64,000 nucleotides of DNA from assembly GCA_016212825.1 (NCBI GenBank), contig JACRDS010000052.1, positions 424 to 64,423 of the forward strand, in the 5' to 3' direction. The translations under genes were made by a program, and so were the position numbers. The notes under the pieces are model-generated. The model worked only from the letters and a program-made list of their open reading frames with translations, did no database searches and had not been told where the DNA came from. Below, one piece after another: positions 16,156 to 60,924 of the stretch. Position 1 is the stretch's first letter. The number at the start of each line of letters is the position of its first letter. Source of the DNA: Elusimicrobiota bacterium. Lineage in GTDB: Bacteria; Elusimicrobiota; Elusimicrobia; UBA1565; UBA9628.

Positions 16156-16266
16156 CGGCCGTTGGCGTTACCTGGTTTTCACGATTTTGGCCTAGGCCGC
16201 TTGGACCTGTTTTTATAGGGCTACCGGCTCATGCGCGAGCGGGAGCATTCTGGTATCTTCTCTTCC

Positions 16267-28418: not shown

Positions 28419-28606
28419 CGTGTTTCCCTTCGCCTGCGATAGTATAGATTCGCGAGAAAAAGAAAGGCTGGGCCCAAGGGGCAGGGGGACCTGGATTTAG
28501 GGCCCTATGCGCTTTGGGTCCTTTGCCGGACTCTCCGAGTCAGCTTAGCCCCAAAAGCCGGAATTGGCAAGGTCTTGTCCAGGGGGTGCAGGGGGTGTTT
28601 GCAGGG

Positions 28607-28665
28607 GGTGTCAGGCTTTCACGAATTTCACTGCCCATCCGTGAAGTTTGTGAAAGCCTGACACC
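28607..28665. repeat. family-1 palindromic element, copy A
   Basis: GGTGTCAGGCTTTCACGAA...TTTGTGAAAGCCTGACACC. The arms are complementary except for one G:T pair. Located between divergent genes. Confidence 0.8.
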
Positions 28666-28679
28666 GATATTTCTTTTCC

Positions 28680-28708
28680 TTGACCCTCGGCAAGACAGTG
28701 ACTATAAT
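28680..28708 (+). promoter_or_regulatory. near-consensus sigma70 promoter (TTGACC-17 nt-TATAAT) for the DUF2339 operon
   Basis: TTGACC at 28680-28685 and TATAAT at 28703-28708. AAAGGA SD and the ATG at 28727 follow. Confidence 0.7.
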
Positions 28709-33718: not shown

Positions 33719-34204
33719 ATGGGACCTGGGAAGCCGGCCATCGCGGCGATCCTCATGCTCGCCGTCAACGCGGCCTTCCTGCTGGGAGTGCTCCTGGCGA
33801 GTCGGCCGCAGGAGCCCGGTTTCTCCGGGCCGGAGTGGGGCGTGACCGGAGGCGCGGTCAGGGCCGAGGATATCCCCGGCTATCTGGCCGGCCTGGCGGC
33901 GATGCGGAGCCTCCCGGAGGACGCTGCGATCCAGCTGCGGTTCTACAGGGCGGCGCCGGGGATGCGCGTGCAGGAGAAGAGCTACGTCATCGGCCGGGAC
34001 GTGGCCGAGGGGGAGGCGCCGGACGCCGACCTCGAAGTCCTGCTCGATGCGAGATACGTGGCGGAGCTTGGCGGGGGGATCTGCCCGGCGATCCAGAGGG
34101 CCAGGGCGGAGAAGGGGCTGGAGTTCAAGGTCCGCAAGAACGCCGGGGCCCTGCTTTGGAAATACCGCGACATCGCGAGATATAAGGCCTGCTTCGGCTT
34201 CTAG
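33719..34204 (+). CDS. hypothetical N-terminally anchored protein
   Basis: Starts 4 nt after the DUF3999 stop. Single N-terminal helix and coding-like composition. Confidence 0.5.
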   Translation: MGPGKPAIAAILMLAVNAAFLLGVLLASRPQEPGFSGPEWGVTGGAVRAEDIPGYLAGLAAMRSLPEDAAIQLRFYRAAPGMRVQEKSYVIGRDVAEGEAPDADLEVLLDARYVAELGGGICPAIQRARAEKGLEFKVRKNAGALLWKYRDIARYKACFGF

Positions 34205-34265
34205 GTGTCAGGCTTTCACGAACTTCACGAACTTGAGGACGTGAACTTCGTGAAAGCCTGACACC
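34204..34265. repeat. family-1 palindromic element, copy B (perfect arms)
   Basis: GGTGTCAGGCTTTCACGAACTTCAC...GTGAACTTCGTGAAAGCCTGACACC. It begins at the last base of the 33719-34204 stop codon and ends 15 nt before the convergent stop. Confidence 0.8.
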
Positions 34266-34280
34266 AACTAAAGACACCAA

Positions 34281-35483
34281 CTAAAAGCAGCGCGCGGCCA
34301 GGCTATCGAGGCGGGCCAGGGCGGCTTTGTCGGAAAGGCGTACGAACTCGGGGTCCCGGAAGAACGTCGTGAAGACGGCGTAGGAGCCCCAGGCCAGCAC
34401 CAGCACCGAGGTGGTCAGGATGGTGTAGAACCTCTGGTAGCCGAAGCTCGCGAAGAGGCCGAACTGCATGGTGAGGCTCGAGAGCTGGTAGAGGTGCATC
34501 ATGGTGTTGTGGCTGATGGCCCCGACCTTGCGCATCTGGTTGATGGCCGGGATGAGCGGCCCGCCCGAGAGCATGCCCTGCATGATGTTGAGGAAGATCA
34601 GGCCGATGCCCGACCAGGTGTAGACCAGGGGGTTCTCGCCCAAAGGCCCCAGCACCAGGCGGTTGAGGAACTCGAAGCCGCAGAGCTGGAAGTAGACGAA
34701 GAACAGGTCGCCGAAGTATGCCTTGTAGACGCGCAGAAGCCCGGTCATCTTGCCCAGGAATTTCATGTAGGTCTGCCCGAAGACCGTGAAGACCGCGTCC
34801 TGCAGCTGGTACCAGGAGGTCGACAGCACGGCGCGGACCATGGGCAACTCGCCCTTCTGAACGCTGGTGATCATGAAGCCCAGGCGCACCACGAGGTTGA
34901 GGCCGAAGGTCTTGTAGTAGAGGTAGCGGAAGTCCTGCTGGTTGGGCTTGGTCATGCAGGACTTGAAGATGGCCTTGATGTTGCGGAAGAAGTCCAGGTC
35001 GAACTCGACGAGCCCGCCCTTCTTCTTCGGGGGCTTGTCGTGCGCCTCGGCCTTGGCATGCTTCTCCTTCTGGTACTGCTTCTTCTCGTGGTCGTTGAGG
35101 AAATAGTCCTTCAAGCCGTCGAAGAAGGCCGTCTCGTGCAAGGAGACCTTGCAGCAGACCGCCTCCTGGAAGCGGCTGCGCACCGCGCGGATGAAGCTGC
35201 GGTCCTCGGGGGAGAGCTCGGAGAGCAGGTTGCCGCCTATGCCCTCGGAATAGGTGCGCGTGGGGTAGACCACCACGAGCACCTTCTCCGCCCCGGAGAG
35301 CAGCTTCTGGTTCTCCTCGGAGAAGAGCGTGGCCGGGCAGACCTTGCGCAGGGTCCCGTTGCCTTGATGCCCCAGGTCTTCGCCCCGGCAGAGATAATAG
35401 GCCCGCTCGAAATGCGTCGCGTCGTCCTTCTTGACCGCCGTGTCCACGGCCAGGATCACGGCACTCTTGGCGAGCTTGTCCAT
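34281..35483 (-). CDS. hypothetical protein: soluble N-terminal domain plus polytopic C-terminal membrane domain
   Basis: 400 aa with a Lys-rich linker (HAKAEAHDKPPKKKGG) and about 6 helices. TATAAT (minus strand) at 35495-35500. Confidence 0.6.
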   Translation of the reverse strand: MDKLAKSAVILAVDTAVKKDDATHFERAYYLCRGEDLGHQGNGTLRKVCPATLFSEENQKLLSGAEKVLVVVYPTRTYSEGIGGNLLSELSPEDRSFIRAVRSRFQEAVCCKVSLHETAFFDGLKDYFLNDHEKKQYQKEKHAKAEAHDKPPKKKGGLVEFDLDFFRNIKAIFKSCMTKPNQQDFRYLYYKTFGLNLVVRLGFMITSVQKGELPMVRAVLSTSWYQLQDAVFTVFGQTYMKFLGKMTGLLRVYKAYFGDLFFVYFQLCGFEFLNRLVLGPLGENPLVYTWSGIGLIFLNIMQGMLSGGPLIPAINQMRKVGAISHNTMMHLYQLSSLTMQFGLFASFGYQRFYTILTTSVLVLAWGSYAVFTTFFRDPEFVRLSDKAALARLDSLAARCF

Positions 35484-49189: not shown

Positions 49190-49216
49190 GCCTCCAGTCT
49201 ATAAAATCGGCGATTC

Positions 49217-49309
49217 GGTGTCAGGCTTTCACGAAGTTCACACTCTATCTGTTAAGTTTGTGAAAGCCTGACACCGCTTCAGTCGTGAGGTCCGTGAAAG
49301 CCTGACACC
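49217..49309. repeat. family-1 palindromic element, copy C, plus an additional right-arm half-copy
   Basis: Full palindrome at 49217-49275. A second GTGAAAGCCTGACACC at 49294-49309. Located between divergent genes. Confidence 0.8.
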
Positions 49310-60847: not shown

Positions 60848-60924
60848 GGCGCGTTCGTCTAGCGGCCTAGGACGCTGCCCTCTCAAGGCAGAGATCAGGG
60901 GTTCAAATCCCCTACGCGCCACCA
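60848..60924 (+). tRNA. tRNA-Glu (anticodon CUC), CCA encoded
   Basis: Hand-folded cloverleaf. Acceptor GGCGCGT/ACGCGCC, D arm GTCT-AGCGGCCTA-GGAC, anticodon arm CTGCC-CTCTCAA-GGCAG, T arm AGGGG-TTCAAAT-CCCCT, discriminator A, then CCA. Confidence 0.93.

Follow-up and report, generated by a model that had tools for sequence, protein, structure and literature searches.

Three palindromic copies in a 64,000-nucleotide stretch of an Elusimicrobiota bacterium genome, hereafter the window, raised the question of what kind of element they belong to. An earlier note on this DNA had proposed either a REP/MITE-like mobile or recombinogenic element or a binding site for a dimeric protein. The window is part of contig C184 of a MAG of 3.56 Mb (186 contigs, 69% GC, 86% complete). 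The copies and the features next to them are as follows.

28607..28665, no strand assigned: copy A, inverted F1 dimer; left arm 28607-28631, 9-nt loop, right arm 28641-28665.
28680..28708, plus strand: promoter of the DUF2339 gene, of the sigma-70 type and near consensus (TTGACC-17-TATAAT), 15 nt past the end of copy A.
34204..34265, no strand assigned: copy B, inverted F1 dimer; the first G of the arm overlaps the stop codon TAG of the upstream 161-aa ORF.
49209..49216, plus strand: 8 nt (GGCGATTC) separating the left arm of copy C from the region upstream of murB, missing from the orthologous site of the congener G002.
49217..49275, no strand assigned: copy C, inverted F1 dimer between murB (minus) and a 144-aa ORF (plus).
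49284..49309, minus strand: extra solo F1 arm (GGTGTCAGGCTTTCACGGACCTCACG; nhmmer E 5.6e-6), oriented the same way as the right arm of copy C, at a distance of 8 nt.

The F1 arm GGTGTCAGGCTTTCACGAA, searched with at most one mismatch, had seven matches in the window, against 0.03 expected from shuffles. Copy A held arms at 28607-28625 (plus) and 28647-28665 (minus), copy B at 34204-34222 (plus) and 34247-34265 (minus), and copy C at 49217-49235 (plus) and 49257-49275 (minus); a further arm lay at 49291-49309 (minus). The extents of the three copies in the earlier note, 28607-28665, 34204-34265 and 49217-49275, were all verified. The right-arm half-copy that it had placed at 49294-49309 was also present, as a full arm of about 26 nt (49284-49309) and not as a half. 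As single-stranded DNA, copies A, B and C formed stems of 24-30 bp, with dG of -24.5, -28.5 and -25.3 kcal/mol and z of -9.8, -9.9 and -6.1, respectively; the stem of copy A had mismatches at positions 17 and 20. Comparison of the three loops bore out that they are mutually unrelated.

Copies A and C are located between divergent genes (a 608-aa ORF on the minus strand and the DUF2339 gene on the plus strand for copy A; murB, minus, and the 144-aa ORF, plus, for copy C) and copy B between convergent ORFs, as had been described. No T-run follows the stem at any of the three copies and no terminator-like call was obtained, so the copies are not simply terminators, as the earlier note had held. 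At the gathering score of Rfam 15 none of the three copies was matched, and the sole match in the window was a tRNA at 60848-60921. An independent Logan assembly of run SRR12113407 reproduced copy C and the extra arm without a single base difference; copy C is thus not an artefact of a contig join, an origin that the earlier note had considered. This cross-check covers copy C only: exact-protein look-ups of the neighbours of copies A and B gave no match or a contig ending inside an arm.

The family extends far beyond the three sites to which it might have been restricted. A profile search of the whole genome found 32 F1 arms, almost all of them intergenic, in nine inverted dimers, 12 solo arms and two arms bracketing one gene. 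A few of the solo arms adjoin contig ends. The true length of the arm is about 25 nt (GGTGTCAGGC TTTCACGAA STTCAY), and its design is a head, GGTGTCAGGC, followed by two or three tandem motifs of 8-9 nt (TTTCACGAA / STTCACG). Single arms had a dG of 0 to -0.6 kcal/mol, no better than shuffles. Because they do not fold, we regard them as terminal inverted repeats (TIRs) and not as classical REP hairpins.

At least four sister arm families are present in the genome, and three bracket a paralog of their own. F2 (GGTGTCAGGC CTCAACTTRTYGGA) has about 26 arms, F3 (GGGGTCAGGT CTTGAAATTTGA) about 20, mainly in tight dimers, and F4 (GGTRCCTGG TTTTCACGATTTTACG) about 21, mainly solo or in tandem. One of the F4 arms lies in the window.

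16167..16190, plus strand: solo F4 arm (GTTACCTGGTTTTCACGATTTTGG; C184:16590 is window position 16167), whose cognate F4 paralog lies at C186:3214-4005.

When the four families were pooled, 86 of 108 arms lay strictly within the roughly 15% of the genome that is non-coding, as counted with crude gene calls covering 85% of the genome; most arms outside this strict set touch only the edge of an over-extended ORF call. F1-like arms were found in five of eight congeners, each species having its own variant; 32 genomes belonging to other genera of this family and order had none. Exact 19-mer matches in unrelated phyla were rejected as relatives, since their number was about that given by chance for 596 Gb; only the Elusimicrobia record L043 (Elusimicrobia bacterium UBA9628), a congener about 78% identical to this genome, was real.

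A RAYT/IS200-like cognate gene, which the earlier note had suggested looking for, was found outside the window at C53:24496-25371. It encodes a 292-aa protein and is flanked by 26-nt inverted F1 arms, 59 nt before the start and 21 nt after the stop. The gene occurs in one copy according to tblastn, the next paralogs being at most 41% identical, and its closest cross-species relative has 45% identity. The protein matched Pfam Y1_Tnp with 42 bits (cut-off 23) and NCBIfam REP_Tyr_transpos (REP-associated tyrosine transposase) with 75.6 bits, just below the cut-off of 80. A profile of 16 paralogs had its best PDB match in 4ER8 (E. coli TnpA-REP/RAYT; E 1e-6), in an alignment spanning the HUH motif (PNHxHLL) and the catalytic-tyrosine motif (RYIHLNP), both of which are conserved in the arm-flanked paralogs.

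The AlphaFold (AF2) model of the protein (pLDDT 83) comprises two folded domains with a disordered linker between them. Foldseek placed 4er8_A first for the N-terminal domain (E 6e-7, TM 0.71), followed by IS608, ISDra2 and IS200 TnpA. The C-terminal domain superposed on the complex of the DnaA DBD with the DnaA box (3pvp_B) with an rmsd of 1.4 A over 72 columns and a TM of 0.68. Weak matches to Bac_DnaA_C were obtained in 7 of 16 paralogs and to HTH_23 in 4 of 16; an HTH_23 match had 24.3 bits. The C53 protein is a predicted HUH/Y1 transposase with a C-terminal domain that, in the model, has the fold of DnaA domain IV. Apart from the Y1 gene, no transposase-like ORF was found inside solo arms.

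The pairing of enzyme and arm recurs across paralogs and species. There are six paralogs in the genome, among them a gene on C16 bracketed by F2 arms and the C186 gene bracketed by F4 arms, and in the set of eight congeners all genomes but one have 1-8 paralogs. About 15 full-length paralogs in eight genomes are bracketed by inverted arms of a common design, a head of the GGTG(T/C)C.GG type followed by 2-3 tandem motifs of 7-9 nt that are specific to the paralog. Arm type agrees with the enzyme tree in its resolved parts (F4 clade 100/98, F3 clade 97/91). The F1-type enzymes form an unresolved polytomy with long branches and not one clade, and the closest relative of the C53 protein is as distant as stated above, so strict co-divergence of enzyme and arm is demonstrated for F4 and F3 only. 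In the clade of the C24 gene both HUH histidines are lost (CLLPGRALVLL) and there are no flanking arms. The MAG, which is 86% complete, yielded no F3-type enzyme gene despite its roughly 20 F3 arms.

Mean identity across the paralogs was 75% for the arm head and 48% for the catalytic domain, and 51% for the inner motifs and 34% for the DnaA-like domain. In a comparison of covariation between the HTH domain and the inner motifs, the four pairwise correlations were similar and confounded by phylogeny. As a qualitative reading of these identities, we infer that the catalytic domain would act on the conserved head, and that the tandem 9-mers specific to each paralog are candidate docking sites of the DnaA-like domain. 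The tandem 8-9-mers lying next to the head on its inner side (F1: TTTCACGAAGTTCACG; others in F2, F3 and F4) are the obvious candidate for its target.

TIRtrons encoding TIRYTs are RAYT-like genes flanked by long TIRs, many of which carry the motif GGGGWSAS (Di Nocera et al. 2013, PMC3733652); the motif is found in some TIRs and not in all (PMC3733652). The arm heads described here fit it exactly in F3 (GGGGTCAG), with one change in F1 and F2 (GGTGTCAG) and with at least three changes in F4 (GGTRCCTG). Given a RAYT-like gene with non-hairpin TIRs, and heads that fit GGGGWSAS in F3 and nearly so in F1 and F2, we filed the element as a TIRtron and its enzyme as a TIRYT. The palindromes are probably inverted dimers of the F1 TIR unit of about 25 nt, multiplied as non-autonomous passengers of the C53 TIRtron. 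We base this on the distribution of the F1 family, the one-to-one pairing of arm families with enzymes across the genus, the fold and motifs of the enzyme, and the gain and loss of arms described below. By analogy with IS608 TnpA and E. coli TnpA-REP, the TIRYT would nick a single strand of the arm DNA and rejoin it, probably while that DNA is in single-stranded form with the dimer extruded into a hairpin; arms, alone or as dimers, would thereby be copied to new intergenic sites.

The dimers have a regular asymmetry. In all but one of 15 F1 dimers, position 20 is not the same in the two arms, and a G-type arm is paired with a C-, T- or A-type arm; F2 dimers have an equivalent asymmetry at position 19. 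The difference at position 20 places a G.G mismatch in the hairpin of one strand and a C.C mismatch in that of the other. Such a difference is what a single-strand enzyme would need for telling the strands apart. An origin of dimers by fold-back copying of a solo arm was rejected, because a fold-back copy is perfectly complementary and 14 of the 15 F1 dimers share the mismatch. Loop length in the dimers ranges from 2 to 28 nt.

The comparison of presence and absence in related genomes, which the earlier note had proposed, was made with metagenome contigs 72-94% identical to this genome, and it gave filled and empty sites in two cases. In L038 a complete F1 dimer occupies a position at which this genome keeps an intact overlapping stop/start (CTCT CATGAG CATGAAC); with the dimer in place the sequence is CATGA tg[dimer]ATGAG AGGCAACC CATGAG. 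L028 has a solo arm between two copies of GCCGGCC, a sequence present once at that place in this genome. Both comparable insertion sites thus have short target duplications, CATGA and GCCGGCC. Classical Y1 'peel-and-paste' transposition makes no target duplications, which is a point against the TIRtron reading. No consistent direct repeat or target duplication was found around the nine dimers of this genome. Same-genus orthologous intergenic alignments contained no clean empty sites; coding DNA there is only about 77% identical.

Arms of different families occupy the same spot in different sequences (F1 in L020 and F3 in C156; F1 in L031 and F4 in C77), and hybrid dimers of two families occur in L024 and in L101 and L108 (G003). 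The congener G008 contains 19 copies of a sharply bounded 31-nt solo arm without a partner, which indicates that a single arm can multiply. Two ideas about the target were rejected. GGTGTC as a pre-existing target, in the way that TTAC is the target of IS608, is missing from both empty sites, and the loop as captured target DNA does not hold for L038, whose loop is absent from its empty site.

The outer ends of the copies carry a further feature, which the earlier note had seen at two of them and had described as a tendency to tandem duplication.

28580..28610, plus strand: tandem stutter of flank and element end (CAGGGGGTG, then CAGGGGGTGtttg, then CAGGG running directly into GGTG...), three units, the last of which continues as the left arm of copy A; the period is 13, with 7 nt of flank and 5 nt of element.
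34261..34287, plus strand: perfect tandem duplication with a period of 13 nt (ACACC followed by AACTAAAG, twice), straddling the outer boundary of the G-type right arm of copy B; 7 nt come from the flank and 6 nt from the element, and the end falls precisely at GGTGTC^A.

Both can be read directly in the sequence, as CAGGGGGTG three times in the first and ACACCAACTAAA(A)G twice in the second. The outer unit at copy B provides the stop codon of a 400-aa ORF on the minus strand. We searched every F1 and F2 arm for exact tandem duplications with a period of 6-16 that straddled the outer boundary with at least 8 matched bases. Duplications were present at 16 of 56 arms, compared with 0.8% of 200,000 random positions and 0.24% of GGTGTC sites outside the elements (binomial P 8e-21), so the tendency is real. 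The unit was 7-14 nt long; its flank part was always 4-7 nt and its element part 2-7 nt, most often ending exactly after GGTGTC (GGTGTC^A). Several sites had three nested units of unequal length, and some units were mutated. Duplicated junctions outside the window include C53:24450-24480 and C161:20890-20990. Among F1 arms the duplications were found at 8 of 16 G/T-type arms versus 0 of 14 C-type arms (Fisher p 0.003), and they were rare in F3 and F4 (2 of 40 arms).

Outside this genome the duplications nearly disappear: four congeners have 1 among 42 arms, and metagenome contigs from closer relatives have 0 among 27. They were therefore rejected as a general property of the family. Single duplication events were seen in G003 and L038. 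At orthologous sites, L032 is unduplicated and reads ...agcATTCC up to GGTGTC, whereas C53:24472 reads ...agcATTCCGGTGATTCC before GGTGTC; L026 is likewise unduplicated at the site that is duplicated at C53:26116. From their near-absence in relatives and the unduplicated orthologous sites we conclude that the duplications are derived and arose after insertion, in this lineage. Beside copy C, the 8 nt GGCGATTC (49209..49216), an insertion confirmed here by the Logan assembly, looks like an older, mutated boundary duplication of AAATCGG; at the orthologous boundary L111 reads ...tataaaatc and then GGTGTC.

How the duplications were made can be explained in more than one way. They may be in-vivo scars of the nick-extend-reseal activity of the HUH enzyme, the explanation that we favour, though only tentatively. 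The enzyme would nick 4-7 nt outside the arm, on the strand reading GGTGTC...; a polymerase would then add a few bases to the free 3' end, running into the arm and usually stopping at GGTGTC^A; and the displaced 5' end, held by the enzyme, would be resealed onto the new 3' end to leave a tandem of flank and arm tip. The fixed outer boundary of the duplication would then be the nick site and the variable inner boundary the stop of repair synthesis. The wider proposal, in which the stutters are TIRYT scars and the DnaA-like domain also reads the paralog-specific tandem 9-mers, so that each enzyme has a private arm family on a shared catalytic head, is likewise put forward with considerable reserve.

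Another explanation is that the duplications result from replication slippage, at a stable hairpin or a bound protein, or from errors of this MAG assembly, and we consider it possible though somewhat doubtful. Their near-confinement to this assembly (16 of 56 arms, against 1 of 42 and 0 of 27 elsewhere) is what this account would lead one to expect, and once two units are present a third is easily added by slippage. However, solo arms incapable of forming a hairpin are duplicated too (C182, C53:26116 and C134), and the duplications are limited to one subtype of F1 arm and to the two families with the GGTGTCAGGC head (16 of 56 arms, versus 2 of 40 for F3 and F4). As to assembly error, unit lengths of 7 to 14 nt do not fit a fixed k-mer overlap, several units are mutated or unequal, which implies age, the insertion at the boundary of copy C was reproduced in an independent assembly, and the single events in G003 and L038 lie in other sequences. 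An assembly artefact seems unlikely because unit lengths vary, units are mutated, and the duplications are specific to subtype and family and occur on solo arms as well. A staggered break followed by Ku end-joining was rejected because none of the nine genomes of the genus has Ku; for the same reason end-joining of the Ku type cannot explain the difference between lineages.

It has also to be considered whether the arms are mainly sites of host function (operators of dimeric regulators, outward promoter pieces or hairpins at transcript ends), with spread being secondary and the duplications tuning the spacing between -35 and -10 hexamers. The arm end read outward is CTGACA, which is -35-like, and at 6 of 73 arms it is followed by a -10-like hexamer at a distance of exactly 17 nt, as against about 1.1 for each of the other spacings; of the eight cases with a spacing of 16-18 nt, four owe that spacing to a duplication, as at C53:24472 and at copy C upstream of murB. 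Against these points, six arms with a duplication face gene starts and 10 face gene ends, compared with 26 and 14 for arms without one, and the duplication of copy B faces a gene end. An adjustment of promoter spacing found no support as the origin of the duplications, as there is no preference for arms facing gene starts despite the small peak at 17 nt. Transcript-end hairpins do not agree with stems that lack a T-run, nor an operator with a loop that varies from 2 to 28 nt, and the sites are gained and lost between close relatives. The promoter at 28680..28708 is host DNA outside the copy A element. We therefore hold a host function as the main role to be improbable, and the dimeric-protein binding site proposed in the earlier note found no support beyond the palindromy itself.

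Last, the dimers could be MITEs of a conventional DDE insertion sequence with the same TIRs, the association with the Y1 gene being incidental, and such an origin is suggested by arms that resemble IS TIRs, do not fold on themselves and carry subterminal direct repeats, and by short target duplications at two insertion sites of the kind that DDE elements make, but it is largely refuted and very improbable, given that solo arms contain no transposase-like ORF apart from the Y1 gene, that some 15 Y1 paralogs in eight genomes are bracketed by arms of the same design whose type follows the enzyme tree, that the HUH-dead clade is without arms, and that the nine dimers have no consistent target duplication.

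Among RAYT-like enzymes, TIRYTs (RAYT group 1, TnpAY1 subclass 2.1) form the largest branch and the one with the widest distribution. To our knowledge, transposition or cleavage by a TIRYT has never been demonstrated, nor has any activity, substrate or role been established for these enzymes. If the duplications are TIRYT scars, they would be the first natural record of where and on which strand an enzyme of this group cuts, and boundary duplications may represent a new signature of its activity. The genus can be seen as a natural experiment, with many paralogs that each have their own arm family on a shared head and a dead clade without arms; it also includes a bare 31-nt arm multiplied in one species and ordered, subtype-specific end duplications that possibly mark cleavage sites. 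The question of TIRYT recognition and function becomes testable with defined oligonucleotides and a protein of 292 aa. For the annotation of Elusimicrobia MAGs, the element accounts for one class of intergenic palindromes and of contig breaks.

Comparison with known systems places the element closest to TIRtrons. The C53 protein is like a TIRYT in being a RAYT-like HUH/Y1 protein, longer than a RAYT, with a C-terminal domain of the Bac_DnaA_C/HTH_23 type. Its gene is bracketed at a roughly fixed distance by long non-hairpin TIRs, the TIR copies are dispersed as singles, dimers and clusters, and there are several TIRYT genes per genome, all as in TIRtrons. TIR families have been described as moderately abundant and organized like REPs in dimers and clusters (PMC3733652). 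TIRYTs correspond to TnpAY1 subclass 2.1, with a C-terminus like Bac_DnaA_C, HTH_23 or HTH_28 (Quentin et al. 2018, PMC6006769), and subclass 2.1 has been equated with RAYT Group 1 (PMC6006769; Bertels et al. 2017, PMC5581495). The C-terminal resemblance to Bac_DnaA_C and HTH_23 is shared with subclass 2.1.2 (Quentin 2018), a likeness by domain and fold and not by tree placement. The same survey noted that GGGGWSAS is unlike the DnaA box and left the target of the C-terminal domain open (Quentin et al., PMC6006769).

The element differs from the published TIRYTs in several respects. The radiation in Elusimicrobiota, with up to eight paralogs per genome and four arm families of about 20-32 copies in one genome, is unmentioned in the published accounts (PMC3733652, PMC6006769, PMC5581495). 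The survey of subclass 2.1 found no REP-like repeats near its genes (PMC6006769), whereas here every catalytically intact arm-flanked paralog has repeats. Paralog-specific tandem 8-9-mers, the one-base asymmetry of dimers, hybrid dimers and boundary stutters are undescribed for TIRYTs (PMC3733652, PMC6006769, PMC5581495).

As in the REPIN-RAYT system (PMC3116915, PMC3337134) and the E. coli REP/BIME with TnpA-REP (4ER8), the Y1 gene is present once and has its own repeats on either side. Further points in common with REPIN-RAYT are inverted doublets able to form long hairpins in ssDNA, an intergenic location and lineage-specific families. No two REPINs are identical in their spacers (PMC3337134), and spacers likewise differ between all copies here; the pairing of two arm subtypes in each dimer recalls the Y and Z REP types of BIMEs. 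Unlike REP/REPIN-RAYT (Nunvar 2010; Bertels & Rainey 2011), the arms start with GGTGTC and have no imperfect palindrome headed by GT[AG]G, and the enzyme has an additional domain of a dsDNA-binding type. Solo arms also spread alone, as the 31-nt solos of G008 do, and hybrid dimers are present (L024, L101 and L108) that do not occur among the REPINs of SBW25 (PMC3337134).

With IS200/IS605 (IS608 and ISDra2 TnpA) the enzyme shares the catalytic fold and the HUH and Tyr motifs, and 'peel-and-paste' chemistry is presumed for it. IS200/IS605 elements have no TIRs but subterminal hairpins; they move as complete units that include the gene, are present in multiple near-identical copies and leave no target duplication. 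In contrast, TIRs are present here, the gene is single-copy and only the ends multiply.

Of the REP/MITE-like mobile element proposed earlier, mobility stands, on the evidence of the cognate gene and of gain and loss, and the classical REP does not, single arms being unfolded and lacking a GT[AG]G head. The element is a new member of the TIRtron/TIRYT kind, REPIN-RAYT-like in its working and not a classical REP.

The outward end of the arms in families F1, F2 and F3, sister families of terminal inverted repeats (about 25 nt long in F1), reads CTGACA and resembles a −35 hexamer (n = 73 arms genome-wide). A −10-like hexamer was located at exactly 17 nt from the arm end in 6 of the 73 arms, whereas every other spacing accounts for roughly 1.1; these are all small numbers. 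Two examples among the 73, the only Rfam match in the 64-kb window and a gene outside the window are as follows:

Window 49196-49224, (−) strand: arm end with −10-like hexamer
C53:24440-24480: arm end with −10-like hexamer
Window 60848-60921, (+) strand: tRNA gene (Rfam match)
C53:25412-26116, outside the window: 217-aa gene between two directly oriented F1 arms, adjoining a TIRYT gene

As far as such small numbers go, the sequence fits hybrid promoters composed of the arm CTGACA and a −10-like hexamer, for example upstream of murB.

A common leader, TCGTATGAATA or TCGTATAAGTA, was found directly 5' of the start codon in all paralogs of TIRYT, the RAYT-like HUH/Y1 transposase (contigs C53, C186, C16, C136 and C158). 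Because a −10-like TATGAAT is located inside this leader, whose 3' end is 2-4 nt before the ATG, TIRYT mRNAs may be leaderless or nearly so. The 217-aa gene next to the TIRYT gene on C53 has an N-terminal DxDGV motif, by which its product is a putative HAD-like phosphatase. The same arm-bracketed arrangement is kept in a metagenome relative (orthologue L026), and therefore arms can enclose host genes.

In the TIRYT-like paralog at C24:50640-51524, also outside the window, both HUH histidines are gone and the motif is replaced by CLLPGRALVLL or CLLPPRALLLL across a conserved clade (orthologues L066, L069 and L072). Its members still carry a C-terminal HTH and the region of the Tyr motif, and no inverted arms flank these genes. 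The clade may represent a domesticated derivative that binds DNA.

G000, the MAG containing the window, has about 20 F3 arms. Its assembly, 86% complete, yielded no F3-type TIRYT gene resembling L065/L068 of the congener G008; either the gene falls within the unassembled remainder or the genome no longer has it, in which case the F3 arms would be orphans. G008 itself carries 19 near-identical 31-nt solo arms with sharp ends, GGTGTCAGGCTTTCTCGTATTTTCCGTATTT, none with an inverted partner (loci L076-L094). TA directly precedes the arm in 8 of these loci, and several arms directly adjoin start or stop codons.

Two intergenic spots hold different families in two related lineages: F3 arms at C156:29806-29866 versus F1 at L020:1737-1807, and an F4 arm at C77:~37134 versus F1 at L031:1352. 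Such spots are either insertion hot spots or cases of in-place replacement of one family by another. Hybrid dimers or tandems of arms from two families occur at L024:625-705, at L101 and L108 in the congener G003, and at C74:9520-9584, which suggests that arms draw insertions of other arms via the shared head. In contrast, hybrid dimers of different families are reported absent from Pseudomonas SBW25 REPINs (PMC3337134).
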